DNA of 32,000 bases from an uncultured bacterium (GTDB lineage Bacteria > GCA-001730085). Both the position numbers and the translations under genes were made by a program. The notes below the pieces were generated by a model. The model saw only the letters and a program-made list of their open reading frames with translations. It ran no database searches and was not told where the DNA came from. Numbering within the stretch: the first letter of the stretch is position 1; every line of letters begins with the position of its first letter. Of this stretch, positions 1,189-26,800 are shown in pieces. The DNA is taken from contig CAZMGY010000018.1 of the NCBI GenBank assembly GCA_964565945.1, positions 1 to 32,000 on the forward strand, read 5' to 3'.

Positions 1189-2423
1189 AAATCCTCCACA
1201 CATCAGACTGGCATTTAGGCCGCTCCCTTTACGGCAGGAAACGCTATGAAGAGTTTTCAGCTTTTTTGGATTGGCTGGCGAAGACCATTGAAGAAGAAAA
1301 TATCGATGCCCTGCTTGTTGCTGGTGACGTATTTGATACCAGTATACCCAGTAATCGAGCACAGGAACTCTACTATCGTTTTCTTTGCCAGATTGCGGCA
1401 TCCTGTTGCCGTCATGTTGTGGTCATTGCTGGGAATCACGATTCACCGTCATTTCTGAATGCCCCGAAGGAGCTGCTCCGTGCCCTGAATGTGTATGTGG
1501 TTGGCTCCATGACCGAAGTCTTGGATGACGAGGTGATTGTTCTTCAGTCAGATGACAAATCTAAGGCCATTGTCTGCGCCATACCATATTTGCGTGATAA
1601 GGATATCCGGACGGTCGAGCCAGGAGAAACGATCGATGATAAAAACGCCAAGCTTCTTGAAGGGCTAAAAAAGCATTACGCGGATGTTTGCGCTATTGCC
1701 GAACAGAAACGAAACGAATTCAAAAGCGCTGGGCATGATAACATCCCCATCGTTGCCATGGGACACCTTTTCACGGCAGGAGGTAAGACCGTTGAGGGTG
1801 ATGGTGTCCGGGAACTTTATGTGGGATCGCTGGCGCAGGTAGGCGAGGAAGTTTTTCCTTCGTCAATCGATTATCTCGCTCTCGGACATCTCCATGTCCC
1901 TCAGGCGGTCGGCAGCGCGAAACATATACGCTACTGTGGTTCGCCCATCCCGATGGGCTATGGTGAAGCAACTCAGGAAAAGAAAGTCGTGCTCATTAAG
2001 TTCAATAGCTCCACGCCAAATATCCAAGAACTCCCAGTGCCGTGTTTTCAGGAACTGGTCCGCATTGTTGGATCTCTGAATGACATTCATGCAAAGCTGG
2101 AAGAGCTGAAAAAGGAAGCTAGCTCTGCATGGCTTGAAATTGAATACACTGGCAGCGACATCATCGGCAACCTACGTGAGATACTCGATGAGTCCATGGT
2201 CCACTCTTCTATGGAAATCCGTCGGATAAAAAACCAGCATGTCATGGACCGAGTAATCAGCACGGTCGCGGAAAATGAAACCCTCGATGATCTGAATGTC
2301 GGGGATGTTTTTACCCGCTGTCTGAATACTTTTGAGGTGCCAGATGAAGACCGGGAAGAATTGACGGCCTCCTACAACGAAATAATTAAGTCTTTCCATG
2401 AAAAAGACGTAAACGCGGAATAG
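1185..2423 (+). CDS. sbcD: Exonuclease SbcCD, nuclease subunit SbcD (Mre11-family phosphoesterase)
   Basis: 412-aa ORF with an AAGGAG Shine-Dalgarno at 1174-1179, 5 nt before the ATG. The ordered calcineurin-like/Mre11 motifs are present: DWHLG (aa 8-12), GDVFD (aa 47-51), GNHD (aa 83-86), then MGH and GHLH further on. The size and the 11-nt spacing to sbcC match the classical sbcDC operon. Confidence 0.95.
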   Translation: MKILHTSDWHLGRSLYGRKRYEEFSAFLDWLAKTIEEENIDALLVAGDVFDTSIPSNRAQELYYRFLCQIAASCCRHVVVIAGNHDSPSFLNAPKELLRALNVYVVGSMTEVLDDEVIVLQSDDKSKAIVCAIPYLRDKDIRTVEPGETIDDKNAKLLEGLKKHYADVCAIAEQKRNEFKSAGHDNIPIVAMGHLFTAGGKTVEGDGVRELYVGSLAQVGEEVFPSSIDYLALGHLHVPQAVGSAKHIRYCGSPIPMGYGEATQEKKVVLIKFNSSTPNIQELPVPCFQELVRIVGSLNDIHAKLEELKKEASSAWLEIEYTGSDIIGNLREILDESMVHSSMEIRRIKNQHVMDRVISTVAENETLDDLNVGDVFTRCLNTFEVPDEDREELTASYNEIIKSFHEKDVNAE

Positions 2424-2434
2424 AAAGACTGATT

Positions 2435-5400
2435 ATGAAGATACTTGAGCTCCGATTTAAGAACCTCAACTCCCTCTATGGCGAATGGGTCATAGATTTC
2501 ACCGATCCCGAATATGTATCCAACGGAATCTTTGCGTTAACTGGTCCGACCGGTGCTGGCAAATCAACAATTCTTGATGCTATCTGTCTGGCCCTGTATG
2601 GAGCCACGCCCCGCCTTGGAAAAATAACCAAAAGTGGAAATGAGATTATGTCCCGCCAGACTGGTGGATGCTATGCCGAGGTATTATTTGAGTCCCATGC
2701 TGGTCGGTTCCGCTGTCACTGGGAACAGCGCCGGGCGAGAAAAAAGGCTGAAGGAAACCTGCAGGATCAGGAACACCAGATTGCAGATGCCTCTACCGGC
2801 AAGCCCATTGAAACCAAGAAAAGCCTTGTCGCTGCTGTTATTGAAGAAAAAACAGGGATGGACTTTGACCGTTTCACCCGTTCCATCCTACTGGCACAAG
2901 GTGAGTTCGATAACTTTCTGAAAGCTGACGTTGAACAAAAATCTAAAATACTCGAACAAATCACCGGCAGCGAGATTTATTCGGAAATTTCACGCCGGGT
3001 TCATGAACGCCGGCGCGATGAGAAGGAAAAGCTGTACATCCTGAATGCCGAAACATCTGGCATTCTAATTCTGGAACCGAAGCTGGAAAGAGCGATTCAA
3101 GAGGACCTTGAGAGCAAGCAGAAACAGAAAGCTCAGCTTACCGTTAAATTAACCGAAACCCACGAGGCCATCACATGGCTAACCACCATTGTGGCTCTGA
3201 AAAAGGAACTCCTCAGCCTTGAGGATAAAGCTGCAAATCTGAAGGCCCTTACCGAAGCGTTCAAACCGGAACATGCCAAACTTGAACAAGCCCTTAAAGC
3301 CGCATTATTGGACGGAACATACGCAACCTTCACTACCCTCCGTAAGCAGAAAGCAGACGATCAGGCTTCTTTAAAAATGGCCGAAGCCACATTTCCTGAG
3401 TTAGAATCCTCAGCAAACAAACAAGCTAAAACTCTCAAAACTGCCGAGCATCTCACCCTTAAAACTAAAGAGGATCTACAAGCATCTGCCCCACTAATTA
3501 AGAAAATTCGATCGCTTGATCAAAAAATTGCAGAAGAGACTCGAGATGTAACACTCGCCACTAAGGCCTGTACTGAGGAAGCCGCAAAGATTGAGACAAA
3601 CAAACAGGCTCGGGTAAAGGAACAGGAAAAGCGAACGGACAAAAAAAAAATACTGGTGGCTGTCGAACAATATCTCAGAGAGCATGGAGAAGATGAATGG
3701 CTGATCGGTGGTCTGGCTGGTATTAAAGAACAATTCGGAAACCTGTTCGCCAAACAACAGGAGATCACTCAGAAAGAAACCAAACTCAAAAATGCCACTA
3801 AGACCGTGGAAAAAGCTTCAGAAAAACAGGCATCAAGCAGAAAGCAATATTCCCTCAAAAAGCAGGAACTGGCGGAATCCAGTAAAAATCTTCAGCAAGG
3901 CAAGAATGCCCTAAGCGAATTGCTGGGTGACAAATTACTCCGGGAATATCGCACCAAGAAAGAGGCCCTTCTTCGCGAAATGGCATTTATCAAGAAAATT
4001 GAGAATCTTGAAAGCCATCAGGTCAAGCTGGAAAACGGCAAGCCCTGCCCGCTTTGTGGCTCAATCGAGCACCCTTTTGCAGAAGGAAATGTTCCCGTTC
4101 CCGATGAAGTTGAGCAAAAGGTTGAATCTCTGACCAAGCTGATCAGCAAGGCAGAGGATCAGGAATTCTCCATTAAAGAACTGGGACAGGCGGAAGAGAG
4201 CGCCCGCAATTTTCTTAATAACAGCGAAAAGCAAGAAACCGTTGCCGCCAACGACAAAAAGGCCGCTGAAAAGACCCTCGCTGAATTGAAGGATACCCTC
4301 ATTCAACTTCGGGACAATTTTGAAGAGCTCAAGCTGACAGTATCTGGGAAACTCCAGCCACTTGGCATAAAGAAAATACCAAAATCAGAGCTTCCATCAC
4401 TTCTCGAGTCTCTCAAATCAAGGAGGCAAGCATGGCAGGAACAGGCAAAGCAAAAAATCGAAATCAAACAACAGGTTGCTACCATCAACAGCGAGGTAAA
4501 GTATCTGGATGGCACAATTGAGACAGAAGTTGCGGCTCTGACTGAAAAACAAGAAAATCTGGAACGGTTAAAAAAGGCGCATGCCACCAGAACAGATAAG
4601 CGAAAGGAATCGTATGGCGACAAAAACCCTGACGAAGAAGAAAACCGCCTAAACAAAGCTATTGCTGATGCCGAGGAGGCAGAAAAGGAGGCTAGAAGGC
4701 TAAATACCAGGCTACAGCACGAACTTCAAACGGCGAACACTCGTGTCGAATCCCTGAAAAAGCATATCGAGCAGAAAGCGCCTGACCTAAAAAAAGCAGA
4801 AACAGACTTTTCGGCTGCTCTGACTCCTGCAGGCTTTGTAGATGAAGTTATGTTCCGCGATGCCAGATTGACCAATGAGGAACAGGAATCCTTATCCTCC
4901 CAGGCAAAAAAGCTGGCTAATGCGCGAACTGAGCTCAAAGCCAAACAGAAAGACGGGGAGACACATTTGGCCACAGAGATCGCCAAAAAACTCACAGATA
5001 AGACGTTTGAGGAGCTGGAGCCGCAGTTCAAAGCATATGGGGAATCCCTGGAAGAACTTCGCAATGTCATTGCTGCTCTCAAACACAATCTAAATAAAAA
5101 TACAGCAACCAAGGAACGGATAAAGGAAAAGCAATCCGCCATCCAGGCCCAAAAAAAAGAGTGTCATCGCTGGGAGAATTTGCATGCTCTTATCGGTTCA
5201 GCTGACGGAAAAAAGTACCGAAACTTTGCACAAGGTCTCACCTTTAAATTGATGGTAACGCATGCCAACCAGCAGCTGGAAAAAATGACTGACCGCTATC
5301 TGCTAATCCCTGATGAAGAGCAGCCGCTGGAGTTGAATGTCGTGGATAATTATCAGGCAGGTGATATCCGATCGACTAGGAATCTATCGGGTGGAGAAAG

Positions 5401-5692
5401 TTTTATCGTCAGTCTGACGCTGGCGCTGGGACTATCGAAAATGGCCAGCCAGAAAGTTCGGGTGGATTCTCTGTTTTTGGATGAAGGCTTCGGCACCTTG
5501 GATGAAGAAGCTTTGGAAACCTCTCTGGAAGCATTATCCAGCCTTCAGCAAGACGGTAAGCTGATCGGCATCATCTCCCATGTATCTGCACTAAAGGAAA
5601 GAATCAGCACACAGATAAACATAACACCTATCTCTGGTGGCCACAGTTCTCTGTCTGGCCCAGGCTGTACAAAGGAGGCTAAAAATGAATAG
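2435..5692 (+). CDS. sbcC: Exonuclease SbcCD, ATPase subunit SbcC (Rad50/SMC-like)
   Basis: 1,085-aa ORF. The N-terminus MKILELRFKNLNSLYGEWVIDF...GPTGAGKST (Walker A, aa 37-45) is close to the E. coli SbcC N-terminus as I recall it. A long central coiled coil has a CPLC zinc hook at aa 538-541 (nt 4046-4057). The C-terminal head carries the signature LSGGES (aa 984-989), Walker B LFLDEGFGTLD (aa 1013-1023) and the H-loop IISHV. Confidence 0.95.
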   Translation: MKILELRFKNLNSLYGEWVIDFTDPEYVSNGIFALTGPTGAGKSTILDAICLALYGATPRLGKITKSGNEIMSRQTGGCYAEVLFESHAGRFRCHWEQRRARKKAEGNLQDQEHQIADASTGKPIETKKSLVAAVIEEKTGMDFDRFTRSILLAQGEFDNFLKADVEQKSKILEQITGSEIYSEISRRVHERRRDEKEKLYILNAETSGILILEPKLERAIQEDLESKQKQKAQLTVKLTETHEAITWLTTIVALKKELLSLEDKAANLKALTEAFKPEHAKLEQALKAALLDGTYATFTTLRKQKADDQASLKMAEATFPELESSANKQAKTLKTAEHLTLKTKEDLQASAPLIKKIRSLDQKIAEETRDVTLATKACTEEAAKIETNKQARVKEQEKRTDKKKILVAVEQYLREHGEDEWLIGGLAGIKEQFGNLFAKQQEITQKETKLKNATKTVEKASEKQASSRKQYSLKKQELAESSKNLQQGKNALSELLGDKLLREYRTKKEALLREMAFIKKIENLESHQVKLENGKPCPLCGSIEHPFAEGNVPVPDEVEQKVESLTKLISKAEDQEFSIKELGQAEESARNFLNNSEKQETVAANDKKAAEKTLAELKDTLIQLRDNFEELKLTVSGKLQPLGIKKIPKSELPSLLESLKSRRQAWQEQAKQKIEIKQQVATINSEVKYLDGTIETEVAALTEKQENLERLKKAHATRTDKRKESYGDKNPDEEENRLNKAIADAEEAEKEARRLNTRLQHELQTANTRVESLKKHIEQKAPDLKKAETDFSAALTPAGFVDEVMFRDARLTNEEQESLSSQAKKLANARTELKAKQKDGETHLATEIAKKLTDKTFEELEPQFKAYGESLEELRNVIAALKHNLNKNTATKERIKEKQSAIQAQKKECHRWENLHALIGSADGKKYRNFAQGLTFKLMVTHANQQLEKMTDRYLLIPDEEQPLELNVVDNYQAGDIRSTRNLSGGESFIVSLTLALGLSKMASQKVRVDSLFLDEGFGTLDEEALETSLEALSSLQQDGKLIGIISHVSALKERISTQINITPISGGHSSLSGPGCTKEAKNE

Positions 5693-5811: not shown

Positions 5812-8800
5812 TTAACAGTGAAGTGATAGCTCCATTAAGCTGGCAAAGTTGTCGTTAATCACCATTTGACGGTTGTTAATTGTTCCGTTAACAGCCGCCA
5901 TATTGCTAATACCATTGATGCCTTCGCGGAATGGACGGTACATTTCGGGGTTAAACTTCGCAGCTTCTTTGAAGAAACGATTTTTCATGTGTTCATAGTT
6001 TTTACGCTCATTCAAAGCTTGAACCAAGCTGATAAAGCTGCCTTCGTCCATTGTTCTCGCTAAGCGACGCATAAAACTGTTTTGTGGCAACACTGTGTCT
6101 AAAAAGGTTGTGAAGTCTTCGTCGGTTAAGCTCATATTAGCAGCTCCACGTGCAACAACAGCTTGAACAAAGTTATCCCAAGTGTTGGCATCCATGTTAT
6201 CACGCTCACCAGTTAAGGCTTCGTAATAATAACGGCTTTCGTAGCGATAGAGCTCGGCAAGCTGACCGCTTTCTGCACTTGCAAAACTTTCGACAACTTG
6301 AATGAAATCACCAAACATGTTGAAGTTAAAAGATTTGCTTAACATCATTGCTGTTTGAAGCACATCGTCCATGCTGCGATTGCTCATGTTATCCATTTCT
6401 CGTTTAAGTGTTTCAGATTCTTGTGCGTCACTTTCGATAGCAAAGCGATTTGCCAATCGTTGTTGATAGCCATCCCAGCCTTCTTCTAAGAGCTCTTGGC
6501 TTACCAACATAATACTTTGTCCGTTTTCCATAATGAATGTGTAAGGCTCTGATTGACCTTGAACAATCTGGTGAGGCACACCTGAATCACTGCTCCATTG
6601 TTTTAGCTTAGCTTGGTATTCTTCTAGATTGACTTGGCGACGAGCTGTTTCGGCATCTTCTTCACGCACACGTTCTTCGGCTATACGTGGAGTCTCCTCT
6701 TCTTCTTTTTCTCGAGTAGAGCGTTGCTCTTCGCTTTCAACACCTTGCTCTGCCCCTAATTTGCCATCATAGTCTTGATTGTGCTCGGCCACGAAGCTGG
6801 CATTATCTTCAAAGCCTGTGCCTAAAAGGATCGCATTGAGTTCGTGTTCCATAATCTCAAAGTGTGTTGTGATTTCATCCTGACGTCTCAGCATCGATAC
6901 AAGGTCCTTTTTAAGAATATCTTGCAGTTTTTGAATGTATTCGCTGTATTTGCCATCTTGATCTCGCAATTCTTGCACTTCAACAATCACTTTGGCAAGT
7001 TGTGTTCCCGCCACTCCACGAGATTGCGCCAGCGCTTCTAAGAAATGCTCATCATCTTTATTTGTTTTATCAAAGTAGCCATCTTGTTTCATGGCATCGG
7101 TATTTTCGAGCAAACGATTGGCCAAAGATCCGGTAATGAAAGCCTGACTCGCCTCGGTCATGCGAGTAACAGCTTGGTTAATTTGCGTTTTTTGCCCCTC
7201 TCTAACTTCGAACTCAGCCACAGCCGAAGCAAGTTCCTTCATAAGATCACAGGCTGTTAGAACTTTCTCTCCGCTCATGCTTTCGATATCTTGCCCCAAA
7301 GCTTCTAAGATGCTGATAAGCATAATAATGTAATCGGCATAAGAGCCCATTTCGACGTAGCGGCTGTCCCAAGAAAGTCCAAAATGTTCAGCATGGGTGC
7401 GACGTTGCAAATATTGTGCGACATCAACCGAAACTCCAAGCTCCTCCTTGAGGGCTTGTAAATCTAACAGTTTAACGCGACGGGCTTGTCCCTTAATAAT
7501 GCGAACCGAATCAAACACGATGTCTTTGCTGAATAGCTCACGATCTCTTACTTTCACATCCACATTATCAGATGCATCAGTGAAAGAAAGAGACCGTTTG
7601 CCTGGGTTGGCATTGCTTTGTAAATGGCTAAACGCTTGGCGATTTGCTTTATTCGAACGCACATTGTCACTTTGAACAATAGCCTCTTGAACCAATTGTT
7701 CGCTTAATTTTCCAGATTGAATGAGAACTTCAATCAAACGTTCTTCGCTGTTAATCGTTTCTTTTTCACCATTTGTATGCTCAATCACCAAACTAGGGGC
7801 TAAGCGGTTAAGTGTAATCAGATCACTCACATCATTTGTAGTAAGGTTTTGGTTAAACAAATCTCTTTTGATGATAATTACGTTTTCTGCTTTTTTGTCT
7901 TTAAGTTCATCAGAGCCTTCTTGTTTTTCTTTTTCGCCTTTTTTACGATTAATTAAGTATACGTTGTTCAAAACAATATCACTGGTGATAAATGACTCGC
8001 TATTTTGTCCGTCCGTAGCAAATTCAACTTGCAATTTTTTGCGTGTGGCGTCGCGTGTTTCTAGACCTTTACGCAGATCTTTAATAACATTTTTAACAGC
8101 AGTTTGCTCGTTTTGAGTCAGTTTAAGTCCGCGTGTTTGAAGTTCTTTTAAGAATTCATCGACACGTTGATCAAAGTTGGCTTGACTATCAGTAACAATT
8201 TGGCTTTGAACAAACTTGGCAATTTCAATCACATCTTGGTTTTCTTTGAGTCGAGCCAGTTGCGTTTTGGTATATTGACGGCGTTGCCAGAAAGTTTGGC
8301 TCTCTAGTGCTTTTTTGGCTTGAATTCTACGCATACGTTCCATATCGAAGGTTTTAGAACCATGACTCATATGAAGATCACTACGAGTGAAACCTTCGCT
8401 AAGAGTTCCTTGCATTTTTTTCCAAGACTGGCTCAAGCTAGTTAACATGCCTGGGAAGATTCCTTGGCTTTGCATAAGGCTTAAAGTTTCCCAGTCACTC
8501 TCTTGAACTTCGGCCGAAGAGTACAAGGAAATAAAGGCTTTCATAGTTGCATTGTGTTGTTGGATCGAAGTTTCGGGATTGTTAAGAGCTACTGCGCGAC
8601 GAATCATGTCGATGGTTACTTCGTTGCTACGTGTGCGCATGCGTTGTTCTTCGATGCGGCTCAAGATCGCTTGAGATTCGGCGCTACCATAACGTTGAAT
8701 AGCGGATAAGGCTGCTTCGTAAAAACTGCTCACCTCTTTGTGAGTTCCATCGTGGATATCCAACCATTCGGCGACATTTCGTGTGCCAGCTACATCTTCA

Positions 8801-11800
8801 CCCAAACCAAATCTCCCCCCTTGACCAAGCATGGTGTGAACACCATCAAGAAAATTGTAATCTTCTTTACGAGCTAAGCGAATATCGACCATCGCGGCAA
8901 GCATATTGCGACGTGATTGATCCAATGTATTGGTACGATCGCGTCCGCCAAAATCCATCAGTTTTTGCATGGTCAAAATGCTAATGTCTAAATCGTGCCC
9001 TGTGAAAGATGTAATTATGGATGCTGTGATAGCAAAACGATTGGCGTTTTTAAAGGCTTTGAGAATCTCTTCTTGTTTGTTTGCATCAGCAGCTCTAAGA
9101 GCAATTTGTTTCATCGCTTGAAGAAACTCTTGGTCACCTTGATGCATAGCTTCTTCAATTTGCTTAAGAGCAACTTCGGCTTCGGCTTGATTCATGCCGT
9201 TAAGGGCGTCCATAACTGGTTTCATAGATTGAAATTCGCTTTGAGACATTATTTCTTTCATCATTTGAAGATTCATTTTGTTCACATGGAATTTGTCACC
9301 TTGAACATTAACAGTTCGTCTAAACCATTTGTGATCGCGATTGCTTGAAAGAAGGCCTTTTCCAGAGGCTTTAGCGGCCTGAGCTAAATCATTGTATGTG
9401 TTGCGAAGTTGATTGGCTTGCAAGTCACTTAAACGGACTTTAGCTTGATGTGAGTGCTGGCCTGAAACTTTTTCAGGTAAATCTTGTTTAGGATGGACAA
9501 GGGCATTCACTAAATTACCCATTTCGGATAAACTTTGGTTTCCAGACAAAATACCACCACGAGGAGTTGAAACGGGTTTGTTAGCCGCTGCACCAATGCG
9601 TCCTGTGATTTTAACGCCTTTGGTCATTTGAATTTCTTCTTGAAGCAAGCGCAATGGTTTACGAAGCTGAGCAAGGCCATGAGCCGACAAGGCTTTATGG
9701 CTCATTTTAAGTTGTTTGACAGCACCTTGATAAGCTTTGTTTAATCCTTCAATACCACTCATTGTGTCACCACGGAGTTCGAGATTACCTTTGTCGTTGC
9801 GGTTGAACTTGGCGAGCAACTTACGAATTTCATGCCGAGCTTTGGCAGAAAGATTAGGCTGGCTCATCATGTCACGCAAGATATCTTTAGGATATTCGCT
9901 GATTATACCGTTAAGTGTGTTGTATGTAGCTGAAAGAACTTTTTTACGCTCGTTTTGCAGTAAAGCCTTTCCAAGATTATGGACATTCACGTCGCCCATA
10001 TCTTTTAGATTAGAGACCATGCCGTCCGAGAGAAGCATGAGACGAATGTGGTTTTTGTTAGTGAATTTACGGTCACGACCATATGCCTGTCCAAAATCTG
10101 AAAATGTGGTGTCTTTGCCCATAAAGTTAAGGTAACTTACTGGTGCAGTTTCGAGGGCCCCAATATCCCAACCAAAACGGAGAGATTTATTGGTTAGAAT
10201 AGCGACTTGTGACACATCATAACGAGCTAAATCATTGGCGTTTAAGCCGATTTTAGCGAGTAAATCACTCTTGTTATCTTTGGACTGAACCACATCCATA
10301 ATGGCTTCCACAATTTTCTTAGAATCGACGCCTGGAATAGAATTATTATTAACCGATCCAACGGTTACACGTTCCCCATTGCTCTTGAGGCGATATATAT
10401 TGATTTGACCTGTTTCGTTGCCATATTCCAAGACCAATTGATCTTGTGTTTTCCACAAGTCTTTGATGGCACCTGTTTGCTGCATGGCTTGCATGAGTTG
10501 AAGTTTAGCTATTAGAACCCGCTGAACCAGAACTTGTTGCGTATTCGAAGCAGTGTACATATCTGGCTGTGTGCTCACATTGATTGTAAGAACAGTGTGA
10601 AGCATTTGAGCGACTTCGACTTCTTTGAGTTGATCACCCTTTTGACGCAGAGCATTGATTCCAATGGTTAAATTACGAATGGCAACATCTTTTTGAGCCT
10701 CGATGCGGCTAAATCCACTGGCATCTTCTCTGGTTAACATAAATTCACGCATGCTAGTAACCGCGGCAGCTAAGGCTTCTTTTTGTTGAGTGATTTGGAA
10801 TTGTTGCAAATTGGAAGCCACTGATTCGAAGGTTGCGGCAAGTTTTTCAACGCCGACAAGTTCACGTTTTTGAATTTCGTAGGTAGCCAATGTTTCCAAG
10901 CGTGGTGTGATCATTTCGAACAATTGAAGAACACCTGTTTGTTGTTGAGCCATCAAATACTGTTTAAAATGAACCGACCAGAGTTCGAAAGACATTTTTT
11001 GGCCATCGCTCCAGTTGGCTTCCACGCGCTCCAATTTGGCTTCCACGCGCTCCAATTTGGCTTCGAGTTTGGCTAAATCAGCGCCACTTTCTTTGCCTTC
11101 GGCTACTTTTTTCTTTATTTCACTCACTTGTCGTTGTAAGTCGTTTTTGACCGTATCTTTAAATGTTGTCGAATAAACTTCTTTATAAAACGATTGCAGT
11201 TGATCGTAAAGAGCTTGACCGTTACGACCACACATTTGAGGTCCCATTGTGTGCAGGTGAGACATAACTAAACTGATATCCTGACCAAACATTTTGACCA
11301 ATGTTCCCAAGGCACTACGTGATTCAGCACCAAGACCAAGTTGAGCGATTTTGGATACAGGAAGAGTGGTACCAGTCATGTATTGCACGTTTCCACCACC
11401 GCGTTGAATCACATTGATCAAACCAGTAACTGTCGATTGCAAGGAATCAGGCGCGGTTTTAACAAGATCTAAGCGCTGACCGTAAACCATATCAGTGTAT
11501 TTTTGCATAACTTCACGGTAAAAATTCTTATCATTTTTGCCTGTTCGAGTTTGCCGAATTCGCATGCTGCGGTAATCTTTGAGCCATTGGTGAGCTTGAG
11601 CACGAACAAACAGTTCTTGAACCACGCTTTGAGGTCCTGCCTGACGTGATTCATGATGCGATGGTAAGTGTCCGCGATCTTGGTACCTCGCCACCATGGC
11701 ATCGTATTCTTTGCTTGTTAATTCAAGTTTTTCTGCTTGAATCATTCGTTGAAATTCAGCATTCGAAGAGCCCCCTTTACGGTTATATTCGTTGAGACTC

Positions 11801-14800
11801 TCTTGTTGAATCAATGAAATAACATTGGTAAAAGCAGCCTCTTTAAGTTTAACCACATTCTCACCCATCTTACCAAATTGAATGGTTAATTCACGTTGTC
11901 CAATGCGTGGTTTGATCACCACTTCAAGAACACCAGCCAAATAAGGATCACTATGTTGTTGATCGATGCTGATAATATCTTCGCGTGAAGGTTTGATTAG
12001 GGTACGCTCGGCGCGGTCATTGGTGTAAGAGCTGATTTTTTCTCCGCGACGAATCACTTCGTAGTGACTACCCAATTGTTGGCTTAGAGCTTGAGACAAT
12101 GCAAAGAATCCTTTTTGAGTCACCCTGGTGCTGCGTCCACCAAAGGATTCATATATGCCCAAAACACTATCTTTTAAAAAGTACTTTAAGCTTCCCACTA
12201 TGCCGTTGGAATTAGGATTTTTGGCGTTGATAAAACTATCCAATTTTTTGGCTTTAAGCAGATCGCTACGCCCAATAGCTTTCAAGCCTTGGCCTGCCAC
12301 ATCGCTAGCCCAGAATTCGGCTTTAAAGTAAGTTCCCGTGCCAGCGATGGTTGATGTTTTCACAAAACGCTGAGTAAACTCTGAATTGATAAAATCTTTA
12401 ACCATCGCTGTGGCTTCGCCAAATTTGAGCGCTGTGCTGTATTCTTGTTTGCCCGGACGTGTGCTCAACTGATGCTGAAAGGTTCCTTTGGCAGGATCAA
12501 GGATAAGATAAGGCTTAGGACCAAAATCCATGACCGCGCCATTTTTGCTAATTTCGACACGAACAATTTTATTAGGATCAGCTGTGAAGCTAATTAAGAA
12601 TTCATCTTTTCCCTCGCGGAAACGGAAAATGTTTCCCCCATTCTCTTTCTCTTGGATACGAGCCAATTCTTGAGCCATGGGCAATTCGAGAGCAGTTGTA
12701 AAATCACGAGCTGTGTTGGCAGCCGTTTTGGCAGATTGTGATAAAGGATTTTCGGCTTTAAAACCAGAAATCAGGGCAGGAATATCACCAATCATATGTG
12801 CTTCGTCGACCAACATGCTAGATTTCTTAAATAAGAGCTGACCAATAGCCGCTTTCACGGGTTCTTTGCCTGTTTGACCTGCCAAGTGAACTTGCTCTAA
12901 AGACATGGCATCAGCAAACACAATCAACCCGCCTTGAGCTTGAGCGCGTTGAATTACTTTAAGGGTCGTTGCAGCTTCGCTTCCGTAGAGGCTAGCTCCA
13001 TCTAAACGAACATAAGTGACCATATTACCTTTTTCACGACCAGTTAACTGAGCTAAATAGGTATTACTGTTCAGTGTATCCATAAATGTGTGCCCATTCA
13101 CCATCATATCGGCCACCGCTTGATTGAGCTTACCGCTATCGGCAAAAAAGGAAATAGAGGTGTTAACGGATTCACCAAACAGGAGTGCACTGATAGCGGT
13201 GAAAATTGGAGAAATGGTTTTACTTTTACCAATACCAGTTACCGCATCGAGCAAATAAGACTCTTTGCCTAACATGCGGAAGGTTTCTTTAAGGCCATTG
13301 ATCCGTGTAGTTATGTCTCCTAAGAAAGTGTATTTGTAGTGACTGATAAAAGTCTTAACTACTTCGAGCATAACCTCGACCATAGGCAATTCTGCGGCAA
13401 AGGCCTGATCACTAGTGGCTTTGGATTTGGCAAATTGTAAGTAAGCTTTACGGACCAAGTTGAATTTTTCGCCACCTTTAAGAAGGACTTGACCTTCGGC
13501 ATCTTTGGTAAAAATCTTGTCTGCTATGCTTTTTTTCACTTTCATAGCTTCTTCGGCTTGATCAAGAAATTCGAAGAATGTAAAAGAGACCTTGCGAGCC
13601 ATTTGCTGGGTTGCCTGTCCAGCTAAGCTTAACTCACCCACTGTTGAGCGTAGTAATTGAGCCCATTGTTCAAATTGATTGCTTAGGCGTTGATCTCCAT
13701 CCAAAGACTCTTGCTCAGCTTTCGAAGAAGCTTGCATTTTGGCATTCACATCACGGCTAAAAGAGTCTTTGTCGCCCTTGGAATCCTTTTTGACAGAGCC
13801 TTGCACCTGCGCATCAGTCTGACGAATCATTTGAATCGCAACACTGCGGGCACTGTCTGTCATCATACTAAGATTGTCTTTAGCCAATTGTAATGAAGCA
13901 ATGTCGCGTTCAAGCAGGCTCACGCGCTCTTTAGCTTCGCGAATATTATCTTGGAGAGTTTTCTTCGTATCGGCAGAAACTTGACCCATTTGCATAGTTT
14001 TGGTGAAGGTTTCTTCGTGACGGGTCACGTGCTTTTCCGCTCCTTGCAGTTTTTTCGATTGCGCTTGAATTGACTTGTCTATCCAGCCTTTGAGCTTGGC
14101 AGGTTCGTTTTGGAGGTATTCGAGCAGGCTTTGTTTCAATTCCTTCATATCCTGAAAGGGTTTAGCCAGAGCTGCATCATCGCTACTTTGATCCTTTTTT
14201 AACGTAGTTTCTGCATTCATTTGAGAAAGCATTTCTTTCAACAACATAGGGTCTTGTAATATCCTTTGAACAAAAGCTTCTTGCCCTTGAAAACGGCGAG
14301 TATGTTCGATGGCTTGTTGCATGATTAACATATCGACCAAGAATTTGTTGCGTGCGTAAAGTGCTGGGTTGCTTTGAGCATCAACGTTAGCCGAACGCCC
14401 CTCGAAAAGGGCGCTATAGATGGTTTTGTAAAAGGCTTCGATGGCTTCGTTGTTTTTGCGACCGACGTAGGTGTTGATTAAATCAAAAACAGTGTGCGCA
14501 TTGATCTCCAAATTTTCGGCTAATTCTTTATTAAGCGAGTCTTGCACTTTTTGCAAGCCCACATCCTTAAGCAGAAGGGCAGATATAGCCTGAATATCTT
14601 TGAGGCTCCAGCCCGACTCTTTGAGTTCTTTAAGAGCTGTTGTCACACCCTCTGTTTGTCCTTGGAAGGCTTGCGTAACAACATCAACTTCAACTTGCTT
14701 CTTGGTATTACCCTCTTTGCCCCTTTCCTTAAGAGGGCTAGGCCATAGGTCTTTAAGTTCTTTATGTAGTTCTTTGATCAGAGCCTCCACAGAAGGTTCT

Positions 14801-17800
14801 CTTTGACTGCTCGCTTTTAACGCAGCTTTCATGAATTTCTCTTTGAATGTGTCCCCAAACTTCTGTGAAGCACCTTGTATATCTTTAACTGCAGCATCCA
14901 CAGCTTGTTCCAAAGAAACTAAACTATCAAATCCTTTTTGATGATTGTATTGTTCTTTGAGAGCTTCTTGTCCTTTAGTTTTAATGGCTAACTCAGGCAG
15001 ATACACGCGTTGAATGATCTTATCTTGTATCGTACGATCCAAGCTGTAGAGGCTTTCGAGAGCATTTTCGTAACTTTGCCTTTGTGAAGCGCCACGCATT
15101 TGATATGCAAAAAAACTCCCCGCAACAAAGAAGGCAATTCCGACAAATGGTGTGACTAAGCTAGCGAGCAATCCAGTGACAAACAAAACGGGAAGCATAA
15201 TCGCGATGAAGCGACCACGGCCACCATTGCCAAAGATGTATTGGGCAACACTTTTCTTGCTGCCCTTGGTTTTAAATTCTTTCTCAAATTCAACTTGAGT
15301 TGCGATCCCCATGTTTTTGTATAAAACATTAGGTGTAAAGCTATCTTTAACTTCACCTGTACGAGTCACACGCACTTGATAGGCTATTGTGAAGGCATAA
15401 AGAATAGATTTGAGCGTTTCCGGCTTACTATCGTAACGGGTAAGCAATCGTTGCACGATCTGAGCCATGGCTTTTACATCGGCCGATGAGGTTAACAAGT
15501 GACCAATGATTTTGGTATTTTGAGCATAGGCCTGTGAGGTTTGGCCTGGATACGACATGCGGGCAGCCATAAGGTCAAGCATTTGCTCTTTGGTGAGATT
15601 TCCACGGATCATTTGATTCAAATGAGTTAGGAGTTGAGGTAATGTGAGCCCTGTTTGGCTCAATAATTTAGCAACATAAGGCAGCTGTTGCAAATCTTGA
15701 AGGTTTTGGGCCGCGACTTTGTCGGTCACAAGATCATCATCAGAAGCAGCAGGTGTGACCAAGGCATTAAAGGCATGATTATAAAGACCAATTACAAGAT
15801 GTGTCGCTAAATAACCAGTGACCACAGCAACCGTTAATGCGACAAAAGGTCCAGCCAAAGATAAAGCTGCGAAGGCAACTCCAAAGCCTGGGAGAGCACC
15901 AAGAATAGCGACTGTGGCGATAATACCAATCAGAGTGATCAAGCTATTTTTAACAGGAAGATAGCTGTTAAATTTAGCTTTAACATAGTTAAAGATCCCT
16001 CTGTAACCACTTGGAAAATCATCTCTTTCGACTCGATTGTTTTGCACTTCACGAGAACGTTGTCCATTAAAAGTTCTCACTAAATCATCTTGTTTTTTTT
16101 GTTCATTGTTTTGTTGGCGAAGTTCGGCGTTGGTCTCCATCGAGCTAAGAATACCCGCTGAGTTAGAAAAATGAAAAACACCTGTTTTGTTAAGGAGCAC
16201 TTGAGAGGCAATACCAAAAGCCATTAAGAACGGCGCTGCTCCACCAAAACCCGTCACCATAGGCGCTAATAATGGTATCAGAATTCCGAGTACTGGAAGA
16301 GCAAATCCCAATGAGACAGTAAGGGCCGCCACTACCACAACTTTTTGGAAGATGCCCATTTTTTTACCTTTGGCCATTAAAGGCAACATCATTAAACCTG
16401 CCGCCAAGCCAATTCCCACGGCAGCAATAGCTGGCAAGGCGGTTCCAAATGTTCCTACAGCCACCGCAGTGGCAATGGCAACAACCAAGGCGACTTTAAG
16501 AGATTTTTGGAATGCAGGATCACGGAATTTATTGGCAATCGAAGCACCCCAATACTGAAGCGTGTTGGGGGTTTGACCATGATGTTTTCTCATATAATCA
16601 ATGCGGAAGTCCATTTCATTAAAATTAGGATTATAAGGTTTCGAAGTTAATTTAATCTCTTTTTCAAATTGTAACATCGATGTTTGAGAGTGAAGTTTTA
16701 CGTCAAAAACATCTTCGAGCTGTCTTTGAACAAAGCTAGCGTACTTGGTTTGAAATTTATCGGAACGAACAGCCTCTCGAGCACCTTTTTCACCATTCAC
16801 GAGACGTAGTAAAGCTAAGGCTTCATTAGCTTTAGTGAGTGCGCGTTGAGCTTTGGAGAGCATTTCCGCCTTAGCTGCGCTTTGACCTGTCGTTTGAAGC
16901 AGATGTTGAAGCAGAGCTTCTCTTTGTTGGAGACGCATGCTAACGCCATCGGCAGTTTGCAAACTATTTTGCGAATAAGCAGCTTTCACACTGCCTTGGA
17001 TAAATTGATCCAAAACTTGACGATGAGCTGTAACTTCAATCATATCTGTACGATATTGATTTCTCATAATGCTTAAAACCATTTCTAGTTGAGCACTTCC
17101 TAAGGTTTCACCCGACAACATTTCTTTAACATTAACAGTTAACTCTTGATTGAAGGTTTTGACATGTTTCTGAATATTATTGACAGATTTTGTTGCTTGA
17201 TCCTTAAGATCCTTGATGTCTTTTGTATCAAAATATTCTGGCGAGGATTCAAGCATCTTAATAAGATCTCTCGCGATTTCCAATGGCGTGACCTCGTCTT
17301 TAGAAGCCTTCAACTTCAATTCAGCCAATGTGACTTTCTCTTGTTCAACCTGCTTAATACGAATGTCGAGTGCTGCATTCATTTTTTCCAGTAACTTGCT
17401 GTTTAGCTGAACTAAATTCTCATCCAGAGATCCTCTTTGGCTTGATTGAAAGAGGCTCTTCATGTGTTCAAGATGCGAATCAATACTTTTTTGCTGAGCC
17501 TCGGGACTTTTTAAAACAGGCTTATTTTTGACAACTTCAAGTCGTTGAATTTCTGATCTTAAACCAGAGCTAACAAAACCTTCGATTTTATTGGCCCGAC
17601 TTTCAAGAGCGTCTTTGGTTTTGTTCATCTCACTGATGACTGGTTCCCAATGTTCATTAGCTCGTCCAGCCTGAGCGATCTCTTTTTTGGCCGCCATTTT
17701 ATCGGTTTGAGAAGATTGAGCGCTTCCTGTAATAAGCTTAAGTTTCTCGATGCGAAAATTTTGATGCTTACGATTACCTTCATGTTGGGCAATTTGATTT

Positions 17801-20800: not shown

Positions 20801-23800
20801 TCACCTCTATCTTTTGATATTTTTTGAAAGTTTTGTTGAGCAGAATCCAACTCTTGTTGAGTATTGCGTACTTCGGCACCTAAACGTTCTTTACCAATAA
20901 TAGTCGCTATTGGCGCAGCAACTTGACCATTGCTCATCAATTGGCCCGCGGTTTTCATAAACATCGCTTGAGCTTGTTCATCTGTGATTGTCTTATCAGA
21001 CGCTTTCACCGCTTGAACAAACTCTTGTTGCACTTGATTACGTTCCGTTTTCCTTGCTCCGTCGCGCATAGCTAACTGAACGTCAGTAAAGACAGCCTCT
21101 GTTTCGGACTTAGATAACTCATTTTTACCTTGACCCTTAGCGCGTCCTTTGGAAATTGTATTGGCCACGATACGTACGCGAGCTTCGGTAACCATGCTCT
21201 TAGTGGCGCCAGGCGGTAATGATTCACCATTCGTGATAGCATTTTCAACAGCCTTTTGGCGTGCCTTGGCAACTCGACCTTCTATAAATTGAGCTTTAGA
21301 CATATCATAGTTACTCATATGAGTCGAAAGAATGCCAAGCGTGCCCACCTGAAGAATTGTCCCAATCACTTGTCCCGCAATACCACTGTTCATAAGGCGT
21401 GCATAGGACCCTGTCAGCTGGAAACCTCCTCCATGGACAGTTAGATTAACGGTTCCAAAACCTTCGATAGCAATATCATTGGTTTTGTGTTTAGAAAGAC
21501 CAAGCTTGGCTTCTTGAACTTTAATAACATCCTCTTCTTTGATTGCTCCGCCAGCTGTGGTACCACTCACAGCAGCAAGAACATTAGAACGAAGATTGTC
21601 GTAAGACGATTTTGGCTTGTTGCGAATTTTGTTGAATAAAGATGTGATGCTGATTGCGTCTAAACCTTTTTTAAAGGATTGCAAGCCGCGATCGACCTTA
21701 TCTTGTTTGAGAACTCCTTTTTGAACACTTGGCTTTCCATCGACATATTTAAAGTGTAATTTAGCGCTGACACCAGCACCGTCGGTTACTTTGACCGTAG
21801 CGTAATTATCAGTGGATACTGTTTGTCCAAATCGAGCCATGGCTGAATCAAGACCTAAAACAAATCGTTCACCAAGCGTAAATTTGCTGTTTTGGATAAA
21901 TTTTTCAATTTTTTTAACGTCACCACTTCTGACCAATGTCTCATAGACTTGTTTCTCTCTAATACTCAAATTGCTTGTACCAGAAACATCCACTTTTTTA
22001 ACCAGGGCTATTTCAGCTTCGGTGATTTTATCTTTCTTCTGCAATTCCTCTTTTTGTTTTTGTATTTCAGCGGCTTTATTCCTAGCGGATTGCAAACCAA
22101 AGAACGAAGACGCCGATTCAAAGAATTTTTTCGTTTTAACTTTAGCCTTTGATCCACCAAACGCGCCAGCGATGTTGGAGACAATCCCTCCAATGACCTT
22201 TTTAAAGACAATCTTAAAAACTCCGCCCGCAATGTTTTTGAACAAAAGTTTAGTAAATTTCATGGGCAAACTAATCAAGTACATCACAAAATCTTGTAAC
22301 TTGCTAGCAATAATAGCAGCTAACTGAACCACAGCGCGGACTATCCTAACCACAATGGCTAGGACTTTACCAATGATACCTGCGTATTTAAGGACCTTTT
22401 CGAGAATTTTAAGGATCTTGGCGACACCCTTAAGCATCGATGACAACAATTTACTTCCTTTGCTCTTCATCGTAAAAGAGATGATTTCCCCAGCAGCTCC
22501 ACCCAGATTTTGTTTGCCGATTTGACCAGCACCACCTAGACCAAGGTTAACGTCTCTTTTGGCTTTGCGTTGAACCCGTGATGTTCGTCCAATCGAATCA
22601 TATTGTTCAGCTGTTTTAATACCATTCTTTTTCTCATGGATGGCCAATGGCCCTAGAAGGAATACGGCGCCTAAAAGGCCAAAGAAAAACTTCTCAAACC
22701 CGCTCATACCTTCCGTATCTCCAGTGTAAAGCCGCGAAATCTCATTGAGGAGATACCCCTCTTCGGCGCCAATGATTTTTTCAATTACACCTAAGAACAT
22801 AGCCAACAGACCGGTCACACCAGCATAAGGATCATTAACCATCGAAAAGATCATTGTAGGCATCATAATCATAAATTGGACAATGGCGAGCATCATGCGA
22901 GCGGCAAAGGCGAAGAAGTTGATGCGGGCGTTTCGAGCGGAAGATTTCTTCTTGGTTTCTTTGTTATCCCCGTCATCATTACCATCTTTATCCCAAGGAG
23001 ATGTGAATATTTTCTTCCAAGCATCTTCATCATCGCCACTCGTAACCATCATCATAACAACCGCTAGGATAAGCAAAATAATTAGCATTACAAGGGCAAA
23101 TGTTCCCAAGGTCACAATCGACAAGGCAATGAAAGCAATGAACAATGCAGCACCCACTAAACCCGAAATAAGTGCCGACTGCTCGTCTTTGTTCATAATA
23201 GCTTCGAGTTTTTCGAAGACTGCTTGAAGCTCGGCCCCAAGAAAGGCTGATTTTTTCTCAGAACGGCGCGCTCCTTTCACATCCACATGATCCTCAACGG
23301 CACCGATCCACTTTTTAATCAAATAAAGCAAACCGTCACGAATTGTTTTGTAAATCTCTTCGAGCACTTTTAAAATAAGCTTAAGTCCTTGGAGCAAGTA
23401 GATGGTAACGTCAATCAAAGCTTTTTGTATTTCATACAATGGATTCGGCACAGAAAAAAGACCTAGCTCAAGGCTCGTTCCAATGCGTTTGAGGTCTTCT
23501 TTTTCTTCCTCTAGCGCTTCAATAGCCGATTCGAGACCACCCCGCGTTTCTTCAAGCAAGGTCACCACCGGCATAAATAAAACATTTATTAAAGCCTTTA
23601 ATAATACTGGTAAAAAAAGTTCGATATTTTCGAACGCTTGACCAATAGTGTTGACCAATGGTCCAATAAAGCCCTGGATCCCACCAACAAAACTGGCGTG
23701 CATTTCTTGATTCACAATACTGTATTGTTGTTGTTTGAAGGAGCCTCCATATGTAATGACAAGGCTATCTGCAATACTAATTCCCAAAGAAATAATATCA

Positions 23801-26800
23801 CCAAGGACAGGAATATGATCTAAAACATTAAACGATGAGGATAATTTGCCCCAAGTGTCAATCATACGTGTACGACGACGGCGACCATGAGTCATAATGC
23901 TGTTATCGCTATAAATCAAGGAATCACGATCCGTACCTGTGAAACTGTCCACTTGAAAAATATCATACCCGGCATTATTAAAATCAGTGAAATAAAAGTA
24001 GTCGGTTTCCACGATGCCGTATTCATATGTTGAACGCATCGTTTGATAGCCATAGTTGTTGCGAGCATCAAAAATTTGCTGAACACGTGTTTTCTTTTTA
24101 AGTGGTTTACCACCTTCTATCGTTGTGAACTTTTTCATAAAAATGGCGTTACCAGCTCGGTCATAAATTACTCCTGGTTGGTGCCATGGCTCATCAATTT
24201 TTTGAATATCACCTTCGGCTCCACCAGGGAGATCTTTCTCTGATACTTTATATTTGAGCGTACGGTTGACTTTTCCATTTTTGAATTGGTTCGTTTTATC
24301 TAATGGAGGGATATTTTTATAATAATTACGATCCTTTATTTGCTCTTTAACCGAACCCTTCCAGTTGAAATCTGGATCATAATGCCAGGCCCCATGAAAA
24401 CTGCGGTTATGTCCGCCATCGGCCGAAGGTGCCAGCGAATCTTCCATCCAACGATAAAGTTGTACTTGCTTGCTCACAGAATCTAACATGTAGTACATAT
24501 AAGCTTTATTAATGGTTGTACGGTTATCATAGTCAAAATCCCAGTATGGCACGCTTGTACGATCAAAAACTTCGGGTGACCATAAGTTTTTCTTTTCGAC
24601 AAACGTTTTGATCAAGTTGAACACTTGTTTGCTTTTGCTATAAAACGTCGCGCCTAAAAGATCTTTTTGAGCTTGTGTAAAATCCCCTTCAACTAGAAAT
24701 TGATAGCTATCGGTTGTTCTAAAAATCTTGTTGTACAAGGCCTCTTCGCCTGCAAGATTAAGAATTTTTTTAAAAGAAGCTTTAGTTGCAGCATGAAAAA
24801 AGTCTGTCACCACATATTCATCAATGGTATTCTTTTGGATATATCCCGCGTTGGCCAAAGCTGTTAATTGGGCGCTAGTAAAATCACTTTCGGAGTTGGA
24901 TGCAGCCAATGCAGCATCTTGAGGATTTAAGTAACCATCTTTTTTATCGTAAAAGACGCGTTTCACTTCACCATTGGCATCAAGATATTCTTTAGTTTTA
25001 AGAATTTTAAACAACTCAACTGCCTGTGCCTCTGTAAGTCCCAAAGACAGCAAGTTGCGTGCATCAATTAGAGCTCCTCCGATGGCCTCATCATAGCGAA
25101 GGGCTGAAGTTCCTGAGTTATTGCCATGCGAAGAAGTTTCACGTTCCCCTTTAAAGCTTTCTTCGACAAAGTGAGCTTCTTTACGTGTATAAAATGCAGC
25201 GGGATTTCCCTCGGAATAAGAGCTTCTGACGTTGCTATAAGCTTCTCCCGAAGAATCATTTTCTGTGCGTAACAGACCAATACCAGGATTAAGAATAGCT
25301 GTTTCATCGCTGGAAAGCACATTGATACTTTCAACCTCTTCATTATACCACCCAGATTCTTCATCTTTTTTCGGGGGCGTGTCATTCAAAAATCCATAAA
25401 CAGGCCCTTCAAGTGCATTAAAGCGCTCTTGAGAAGTATTAATATTAAAGAAATCATTCAAGTGCGCCAAAGTCCCTGTGGTTGATTTTTCGGTGAAGCC
25501 ATGCTTGAACCATTCGTAATGGGTTTCTTTGCGAGAAGTTGAGGTAACCTTACCATCTGGCGAGCGATTGTACTTATTAAAGGTTTTTTGCATGCCATGT
25601 TCATCGTAGGTTGAATCCTTAAGATACTCGCGGGTGTAATTGAAATAATCGTTGTACCGAAAGAATTCATGCCCTTCTTTCCCGCTTGCAACTGCATCAA
25701 ATTTATTAACTGTAATGTAAAAAGCTTCATCATCACGAGTAAAACCATAGTTTCCATCAGGTTGAATATACTTAAGTTCCGTCAAATAGCGAGGTTCAAC
25801 ACCGCTATATTGACTGGTGATAAAATCTCCCAGACGTCCTTTTTGTATTGAAAACTGAGAACTTCCACTAATCAAGGCTGAAAGTGCCGCAGGATCGTAT
25901 TTCCCATGTTTTTCCAAATCTTTTTTAAGAATAAGCACCTTACCTGTTTTTGACAAGTTAAAGCTAGACTCTGGCGGCATTGCGTTCAACACAGTCTGAT
26001 TAAGCTGAGCGCTGCCTTTACTGCGAATTTTGTAGAAAAGCTCTCCATTTTCCCATTCTTCGGTGAATCCGATGTCGCGACCTAGGCGAATATTGTAAAT
26101 ATTTTGAAATGCTTGCCAAGGTGTTGAGCCACGATTGTAATTATCAATTTGCGCATAAGTAGAGCGATCGCTACTTGTGATATTGCCAAAGAAGTCACGC
26201 CCATGAATTTGATAATCATTCATGATGTATTTAAGCACCAGCTTGGGATTACCGTTTTCATCATTTAGATCATCTGCTCCTTGCTCTTGATTGTAGATTT
26301 GTTGAAGCACGGTATCCCCAGTTAAGCTTTTTTTAATATTCTTGAAGTTTTGACCATATTTTTCAAGGGCTTGACCTGCTATCATAAGTCTTGCTCGTTT
26401 AGAGCCAGCTGTCAAAAAATGCGTGTCGTATATGCTCTTTAATTTACCTGATAATGAGTCATATTTGGCCTTGCTAGTAGCCGCTTTGAAAAGAGACCTA
26501 ATACTTGTATCTATGCTCGATTCACCTATGCTCTCCGATTGCAACAAGTTTTTAATACTTTTGTAATCATCCCAACCAAAAATTTGTTCAACTTTTTTAT
26601 ACTGGTTCTGACTAACTAAACCGCCATTTTCATCGATCTTATCTTCAAGGTAATACCATTCATGGTGACCTTCTTTGTACGCACTCACTTCTCCCCAAAA
26701 TGAATGATCATAGTCCACTTGAGCGGTTCCTTTGCGAGCCTTCTTAAAAGCCTCTCCTTCACGGATCGTTAGTTTAAGATGAGGACGAGCAAAACTCGTC

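Follow-up and report, generated by a model that had tools for sequence, protein, structure and literature searches.

Giant bacterial genes are almost entirely uncharacterised. In the giant proteins described from Omnitrophota and Actinobacteria, transmembrane anchors close to the C-terminus are followed by divergent SecA_DEAD and preprotein-binding domains without a scaffold/wing domain, and a role of these SecA-like domains in giant-protein export was proposed by the authors (West-Roberts et al. 2023 preprint, 10.1101/2023.11.21.568195); a 20-protein cluster with a PF07517 architecture was reported among long Omnitrophota proteins (2026 preprint, 10.64898/2026.06.07.730766). We analysed a 32,000-nucleotide stretch of DNA from an uncultured bacterium (contig CAZMGY010000018.1, positions 1 to 32,000, here called the window), the minus strand of which carries the C-terminal part of a giant open reading frame (ORF) with an ATPase module that a sequence-only reading had taken for an embedded SecA-like translocation motor. 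In our view, this module is probably the catalytic core of a very divergent P-loop nucleoside triphosphatase of superfamily 2 (SF2; DExH, ResIII/DEAD-like), and would be the one enzymatic module that can be recognised in a rare family of cysteine-poor, hairpin-anchored proteins of very large size, one of which comes from a PVC-group bacterium.

The protein resembles the Omnitrophota giants in its size, in its many transmembrane helices and in the position of the ATPase after the anchors, near the C-terminal part. It differs from them in that their SecA_DEAD and SecA_PP_bind domains are detectable with Pfam, whereas the window's module matched neither model, and in that they are accompanied by glycosyl transferases, peptidases and dockerins, whereas no Pfam domain was found in the 8,727 amino acids (aa) visible in the window (none at E ≤ 0.001, and noise-level matches only up to E = 1) or in two of the homologues described below (P0001 and P0002). 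A conserved ATPase with clear catalytic residues is the single experimental handle on an 18.6k-aa protein that is non-repetitive and otherwise domain-less; its substrate (DNA, RNA or polypeptide), if found, would point to the function of this class of giant membrane proteins.

Motifs, relatives and anatomy of the ATPase module

The visible part of the ORF contains one Walker A match (1.1 expected from shuffled sequences), which fits the strict SF2 form [AG]xTGxGK[ST] (0.005 expected by shuffling), and one hhhDExH box (0.1 expected), situated 143 aa downstream of it. Motifs I, II, III, V and VI follow one another in the canonical SF2 order (Table 1). Residues are numbered, as in the sequence-only reading, from the ATG at position 31995 of the minus strand, the true start of the ORF lying beyond the window. 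The strings quoted in that reading were all reproduced at their residues by minus-strand translation from this ATG, and the gaps that it gave were correct (143 aa between motifs I and II, ~460 aa between II and III, and ~425 aa between III and VI). Its placing of the module ~6,200 aa into the giant protein had to be revised, since the ORF runs off the window: the gene product comprises 18,624 aa as called on Logan contig SRR30621489_1673 (70.8 kb), ~9,900 of them upstream of the part visible here, and the module lies ~16,150 aa into this full-length product, ~1,400 aa before the C-terminus.

Only five relatives of the module (P0001 to P0005) were found among 1.84 billion representative proteins in an exhaustive HMMER search, with 22 to 36% identity over the aligned module. 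None were found in collections of genomes, metagenomes and viral contigs or, by tblastn, in phages and plasmids, and no mention of the homologues' accessions was found in the literature. As far as each sequence reaches, the five relatives contained the same motifs in the same order and at the same unusual spacing (140 to 155 aa between motifs I and II, 387 to 478 aa between II and III, and 347 to 457 aa between III and VI); across the family, motifs I and II have the forms TG[IL]GK[ST] and DE[AV]H. Beyond the invariant motif residues listed in Table 1, a T and a P downstream of motif I were invariant in the six aligned sequences. For the distal part, a sixth genomic copy, on another contig (L148), adds a fifth sequence, and motifs V and VI were conserved in 5/5 of the sequences reaching this region; they are good equivalents of the SF2 motifs. 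Such conservation is not the work of chance, and the catalytic residues are under purifying selection. Since the residues of hydrolysis, beyond those of nucleotide binding, were kept across 22 to 36% identity, the module is argued to be an active enzyme.

Two family-specific insertions, conserved in position and size, interrupt the core: one of ~455 aa between motifs II and III (insertion A) and one of ~280 aa, made of helices, between the two lobes (insertion B). In the AlphaFold2 (AF2) model of aa 6195-6520 (mean predicted local distance difference test score [pLDDT], 72.9; predicted template modelling score, 0.62; blocks of pLDDT 75 to 94 over aa 6255-6394), strands and helices alternated in lobe 1, as in RecA-like domains, and a strand that runs into motif III (NVQY-MTGTT, aa 6869-6877) completes this lobe. 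Insertion A was predicted to begin with a long helix, followed by a beta-meander, and contains the sequence SDPYLAGV. Insertion B was predicted to be purely helical, partly with heptad repeats, and its Pfam matches were coiled-coil noise only. A 21-nucleotide tandem repeat of 2.8 copies (94% match; positions 11007-11064, Tandem Repeats Finder) lies inside insertion B and encodes a heptad-like AKLE(R)VEAKLERVEA stretch.

Similarity to helicases and to SecA

The N-lobes of all six family members matched Pfam ResIII, each at E ≤ 0.14; the scores of P0004 (28.8 bits, with a curated cut-off of 22.5) and P0002 (22.4 bits) were obtained over matches that span motif I to motif II. At the level of the superfamily, the family qualifies as SF2 by its motifs and, through close relatives of the window's protein, by this curated profile. 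Pfam DEAD was matched by 4/6 N-lobes and the PHROG family 'DNA helicase' at 3.9e-4, and there were weak NCBIfam matches to cas3_core and DinG (0.14). Outside these N-lobe matches to ResIII, DEAD and 'DNA helicase', the whole ORF and the module gave only noise when scanned with PADLOC, NCBIfam, Pfam and PHROGs. A search of the PDB by sequence, with the single sequence and with family profiles A1 and A2, gave nothing significant; the only helicase among the profile matches was the 5'-3' DNA helicase 9kqh_A (E 0.85), aligned over EAATGIGKT ... LLVDEAHNL. The SF2 core was missed by standard annotation (Pfam, NCBIfam, PDB sequence search).

When the N-lobe model was compared with the PDB by Foldseek, the best matches by probability were the DEAD-box helicases Mss116p (0.89) and 8fkx_NI (0.87) and reverse gyrase (0.87), followed by RadD, DHX36 and RIG-I, and SecA was absent from the top 50. 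In BFVD, giant-virus multidomain proteins with the annotation 'ubiquitinyl hydrolase 1' ranked first (E 3.6e-4), ahead of an HrpA-like helicase (E 9.9e-4); a phage helicase was matched there with a probability of 0.99. Over the Foldseek searches, helicase matches reached probabilities of 0.89-1.0. By the fold of the predicted RecA-like lobe 1, the module is closest to DEAD-box helicases and to the helicase-like domain of reverse gyrase. With generic SF2 proteins (ResIII, PF04851; DEAD, PF00270) it shares AxTGxGK[ST], DExH, [MS][TS][GA]T[PT], TxxxxxxG[WF]D and QxxGRxR. It differs from them in its two long insertions, in a second lobe that is undetectable by Helicase_C-type profiles, in being embedded in a giant membrane protein, and in a window sequence that stays below every curated threshold.

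In contrast, neither the window nor the five homologues matched SecA_DEAD (PF07517), SecA_PP_bind (PF01043), P-loop_SecA (PF21090) or SecA_SW (PF07516) at E ≤ 10; E. coli SecA, run as a control in the same Pfam scan, scored 436 (SecA_DEAD), 309, 244 and 139 bits on the four main domain models. The absence of the SecA_SW scaffold/wing discriminates weakly, as the published SecA-like modules of giant proteins are also without it. With a local SecA profile made from 79 metagenomic SecA sequences (57 to 100% identical to that of E. coli) and the HMMER filters switched off (--max), the six family modules scored -0.7 to -3.2 bits, and both RecG (20.7 bits) and RhlE (7.5 bits) scored above them. Upon alignment of family profiles A1, A2 and A4 to the 79-sequence profile with hhalign, probabilities were 1.3 to 4.3% and only motif strings were aligned, namely LVDEAH....PxLIxG (23 columns, E ~0.01-0.04), MTGT (E 0.13) and the P-loop; the C-lobe aligned at the wrong place (E 0.17). 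No alignment was obtained between aa 6620-6720, or insertion A, and the preprotein-crosslinking domain (PPXD; residues 220-380) of SecA, and the parallel that had been drawn between this domain and the stretch from HYEV... to SDPYLAGVLEVVIKP was thus not recovered. Comparisons by hhalign with single E. coli proteins (SecA, UvrB, RhlE, DinG, RecG, RecQ, HsdR, RapA and RadD) were weak, and SecA did not stand above the helicases.

As a positive control, plasmids were searched by tblastn with SecA, which detected divergent SecA-like domains (~27% identity) in large genes. These control domains, from Rickettsiales plasmids (genes WPX99842/43 and UCM86432/33) and one Photobacterium plasmid, keep TGEGK[ST], DEVDSM[LM][IV]D and G[LM]TGT, and a profile of five of them aligned to canonical SecA in hhalign with 100% probability (E 4.9e-64, 501 columns). 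The method has ample power, because divergent embedded SecA-like domains score 100%. Membership of the SecA family is excluded at the sensitivity tested, and SecA kinship is not supported.

Plasmid CP113870 of Ca. Megaera polyxenophila (L152, 347-20815) carries two adjacent large genes for proteins of 5,225 and 1,589 aa, and plasmid CP084574 of the Rickettsia endosymbiont of Culicoides impunctatus (L153, 4256-23513) carries two for proteins of 4,927 and 1,475 aa. Each gene of both pairs holds a divergent, yet clearly recognisable SecA-like arrangement of nucleotide-binding domain (NBD) 1, PPXD and NBD2 with TGEGK, DEVDSMLID and G[LM]TGT. These pairs, which served in the positive control, are themselves little-characterised cases, from outside Omnitrophota, of a SecA motor within a very large protein.

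Shared between the window's family and SecA or the embedded SecA-like domains are an SF2-type motor in a very large protein, placed after transmembrane anchors and lacking a scaffold/wing domain, an insertion at the PPXD position, a MTGT-type motif III and, in 4/6 family members, a P-x-L-I-x-G string after motif II, where it forms part of the tail GDxPxLIxG. The family differs in having TGIGK for TGEGK, DEAH for DEVDSxLID and longer spacings, in a helical insertion between the lobes that SecA does not have, and in showing no similarity to the PPXD. Both the tail and the insertion between motifs II and III had been taken as SecA-specific. The former is present in only four of the six sequences, and the Arch domain of XPD/DinG helicases is likewise inserted between motifs II and III. 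Profile searches matched nucleic-acid-helicase families (ResIII in 6/6, DEAD in 4/6, PHROG 'DNA helicase') and never SecA models, which is the outcome that the sequence-only reading itself had named as speaking against SecA kinship; its proposal of a polypeptide translocase rather than a helicase falls with that kinship. What stands of the proposed motor module is a conserved, DEAD-like P-loop ATPase of SF2 that bears its large insertion after motif II, before motif III, and lies in a giant protein, downstream of membrane anchors; the kinship with SecA and the polypeptide substrate do not.

Proposed mechanism and alternative readings

If the module works as other SF2 enzymes do, ATP would be bound in the cleft between the lobes by Walker A Lys 6257 and Walker B Asp/Glu 6397/6398, the arginines of QAYGRDR (R7306/R7308) would serve as fingers, and the opening and closing of the lobes, driven by hydrolysis, would clamp an extended polymer or move along it. 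Insertions A and B may confer specificity for a substrate or partner. This engine would be tethered to the membrane. The hydrophobic segments at aa 5160-5640 occur as closely spaced pairs with short loops and lysine/arginine (K/R)-rich outer flanks, and are predicted hairpins that would bring the chain back to the same side. Such hairpins and flanks would put the ATPase and most of the visible chain together on a single side of the membrane, which by the positive-inside rule is the cytoplasmic side, and with this topology only a small share of that chain would have to be exported. Because the module is nearer by sequence to nucleic-acid translocases than to SecA, we lean towards a substrate other than the protein's own chain, either a nucleic acid or a macromolecular partner.

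Several findings weigh against this reading of the module. The family alignment consists of six sequences (the window and P0001 to P0005). The window sequence scored 12.5 bits on ResIII, which is below the curated cut-off, and its assignment leans on transitivity within the family. In Foldseek, no PDB match to the N-lobe model was found at E ≤ 0.001. Lobe 2 had no profile match to any helicase C-domain, for which reason we infer this lobe from its motifs. When all 1,151 aa of the module were modelled with AF2, the result (pLDDT 49) was too poor for the two-lobe arrangement or the folds of the insertions to be judged. Lastly, the architecture is like that of the published giants, with anchors near the C-terminal part, then the ATPase, and no scaffold/wing.

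Because this arrangement is analogous to that of the Omnitrophota giants, we keep alive an unlikely alternative in which the module is a SecA-derived motor that diverged past profile detection, with insertion A as a remodelled preprotein clamp, and that drives a polypeptide, be it a partner or its own chain, across SecYEG or some other channel. Such a motor would share the evolutionary theme of the divergent SecA_DEAD and PP_bind domains in giant proteins of Omnitrophota and Actinobacteria. It would account for an insertion at the PPXD position, for a homologue from a PVC-group bacterium, Omnitrophota being part of the same superphylum, and for a best hhalign match (LVDEAH....PxLIxG, E ~0.01, non-significant) that is colinear with those of motif I and MTGT. 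However, SecA family models were matched at no threshold, the local SecA profile run with --max was negative for all six modules (with 20.7 bits for RecG), and hhalign gave at most 4.3% probability and left the PPXD region unmatched, whereas divergent SecA-like domains of giant genes, with TGEGK and DEVDSxLID where this family has TGIGK and DEAH, were recognised at 100%. The spacings also depart from those of SecA (~145 versus ~105-120 aa between motifs I and II, and ~390-480 versus ~170-330 aa between II and III), the PxLIxG tail is absent in 2/6 members, SecA was not among the top 50 Foldseek matches, and hairpins with short trans loops would leave little visible chain to export. With no detectable SecA kinship, caution is due in extending the idea of self-export by an embedded SecA from the Omnitrophota giants.

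Going beyond the assignment to SF2, the module might found a new SF2 clade, a membrane-tethered motor of hairpin-anchored giants that would thread or remodel a macromolecule at the membrane, for example in host or prey interaction, with the two insertions as a substrate clamp of an evolutionary origin separate from that of SecA's clamp; we consider this extension distinctly unlikely.

Very unlikely is a module that acts as an ATP-binding switch or clamp rather than as a processive motor, or that is a decayed pseudo-enzyme, and that controls the assembly or conformation of the giant scaffold. A minimal SF2 core strongly remodelled by ~730 aa of insertions, a second lobe unrecognised by any profile and the breaking of the homologous locus L148 into many ORFs are in keeping with it, and many DEAD-box proteins are non-processive ATP-dependent clamps. 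Against it, the residues of hydrolysis are kept, namely the D-E of Walker B, the histidine of DExH and the two arginines in QxxGRxR. A clamp and a motor would not be separable by sequence alone.

In the least probable reading, the core is that of a 5'-3' DNA helicase of the XPD/DinG (Rad3) kind, with insertion A as the counterpart of the Arch domain. Rad3-type helicases typically have hhEAxTGxGK[ST], hhhDEAHxL and an inserted stretch between motifs II and III, motif VI QxxGRxxR is shared, no helicase other than 9kqh_A (E 0.85) came up when the PDB was searched with profiles, NCBIfam DinG was matched at 0.14, and DinG came behind UvrB in hhalign (scores of 33 and 39) and was top of the E. coli panel with the hidden Markov model of the family N-lobe (5.2 bits). 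Yet every one of these similarity scores is at noise level, DEAD_2 and Helicase_C_2 were matched by no member (32 and 121 bits for E. coli DinG), the module is essentially without cysteines and has no iron-sulfur cysteine cluster, and the helical insertion between the lobes is without counterpart.

The giant gene, its homologues and its neighbourhood

Table 1. Features of the window, with residues of the giant ORF and nucleotide positions
Feature	Residues (aa)	Positions	Strand	Basis or remark
Giant ORF, C-terminal 8,727 codons		5812..32000	minus	ORF list and translation; extends upstream past the window
Upstream hydrophobic/transmembrane-rich region	2730-3220	22336..23808	minus	hydropathy scan; conserved in the family; P0004 residues 47-807, L148 and L149 are homologous to it
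Predicted transmembrane hairpin cluster	5160-5640	15076..16518	minus	hydropathy scan; ~600 aa upstream of the ATPase
ATPase module, probably SF2-type	6195-7345	9961..13413	minus	homologous block common to P0001-P0005
First part of RecA-like lobe 1 (begins shortly before motif I, ends shortly after motif II)	6214-6422	12730..13356	minus	AF2, ResIII, Foldseek
Motif I / Walker A, AVTGIGKSKT	6251-6260	13216-13245	minus	strict SF2 pattern; A, T, G, G, K invariant 6/6
Motif II / Walker B and tail, MLVDEAHMIGDIPALISG	6394-6411	12763-12816	minus	D, E, H invariant 6/6
Insertion A, between motifs II and III	6412-6865	11401..12762	minus	387-478 aa in all members
HYEVIRRGEKI	6644-6654		minus	translation from ATG 31995
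SDPYLAGVLEVVIKP	6682-6696	11908-11952	minus	within insertion A; holds family motif SDPYLAGV
Motif III, YMTGTT	6872-6877	11365-11382	minus	family consensus M-T-G/A-T-P/T; predicted strand NVQY precedes
Insertion B, helical/coiled-coil, between the lobes	6900-7175	10471..11298	minus	AF2 all helices, pLDDT up to ~80
Putative RecA-like lobe 2, motifs V and VI	7176-7345	9961..10470	minus	predicted beta/alpha, pLDDT 63-73
Motif V-like, ILTNKSLRFGWD		10165-10200	minus	family pattern h-h-T-x6-G-[WF]-D
Motif VI-like, GQAYGRDRK	7302-7310	10066-10092	minus	family pattern Q-[AS]-x-G-R-x-R
Family-conserved C-terminal region	7346-8323	7027..9960	minus	P0001 (residues 1482-2587) and P0002 are colinear with it
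sbcD		1185-2423	plus	
sbcC		2435-5692	plus	

The visible part of the giant ORF contains 4 cysteines in 8,727 aa (0.05%), and no internal protein repeats were found in it. Homology to the relatives reaches well beyond the ATPase. P0001, a complete gene of 2,898 aa beside mutS/mutL in a metagenome-assembled genome (MAG) of the PVC group, is colinear with aa 5786-8323 of the giant ORF, and P0002 is colinear with it up to the extreme C-terminus; in the family-conserved C-terminal region (aa 7346-8323), Pfam detected nothing and no domain was recognisable. The hydrophobic region at aa 2480-3270 is conserved as well in P0004, in L148 and in a further locus (L149), and appears to travel with the ATPase. 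Both transmembrane regions consist of paired 'bilobed' hydrophobic domains with K/R-rich flanks and are reminiscent of the way in which chlamydial Inc proteins are anchored in membranes.

Of the complete family members, P0001 (L150, 10001-18697; GCA_001730085.1, PVC group bacterium ex Bugula neritina) is the smallest, and it bears an N-terminal signal-peptide-like or anchor segment. Its counterpart in the giant ORF is confined to the final ~2,900 aa, with the ATPase and the C-terminal region, which suggests that this C-terminal block is the conserved functional unit and that the remainder of the giant protein is lineage-specific. In L148 (1-24581; ENA ERZ25070786, ctg147967l), which holds P0005, at least 12 consecutive same-strand ORFs without Pfam matches are colinear with the giant ORF from aa ~2500 to ~8235, and a frameshift stands directly after motif III (MTATP); the splitting of this locus reflects either a long-read assembly error or a decaying giant gene. 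A polyvalent protein of a phage or conjugative element was considered and rejected, given the absence of phage or plasmid relatives and of other domains and the chromosomal mutS/mutL neighbourhood of P0001.

On the plus strand, the giant gene is adjoined by sbcD and sbcC. A functional link between this pair and the giant gene was rejected, as the sbcCD cassette occurs without the giant gene in 54 other genomes. Across the assembly collection, the giant locus accompanied by an identical SbcD turned up in 24 index blocks, among which are contigs of several sequencing runs. Relatives of SbcD with 63 to 88% identity were found in MAGs of many phyla (Acidobacteria, Spirochaetes, Desulfobacterota, Chlamydiae, Chlorobi, Planctomycetes, Gammaproteobacteria and others) from which the giant gene is absent, and the sbcD-sbcC pair (within 735-5692) represents a horizontally spread cassette. 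A 120-aa ORF at positions 735-1097 is the N-terminal remnant of a ~860-aa PADLOC candidate (PDC-S06-like) gene, which stands before sbcD in four other loci (L010, L014, L017 and L026). SbcC also matched LmuB-type models. Together, the sbcCD cassette, the PDC-S06-like remnant and the LmuB-type matches suggest a decayed defence-like island adjoining the giant gene.

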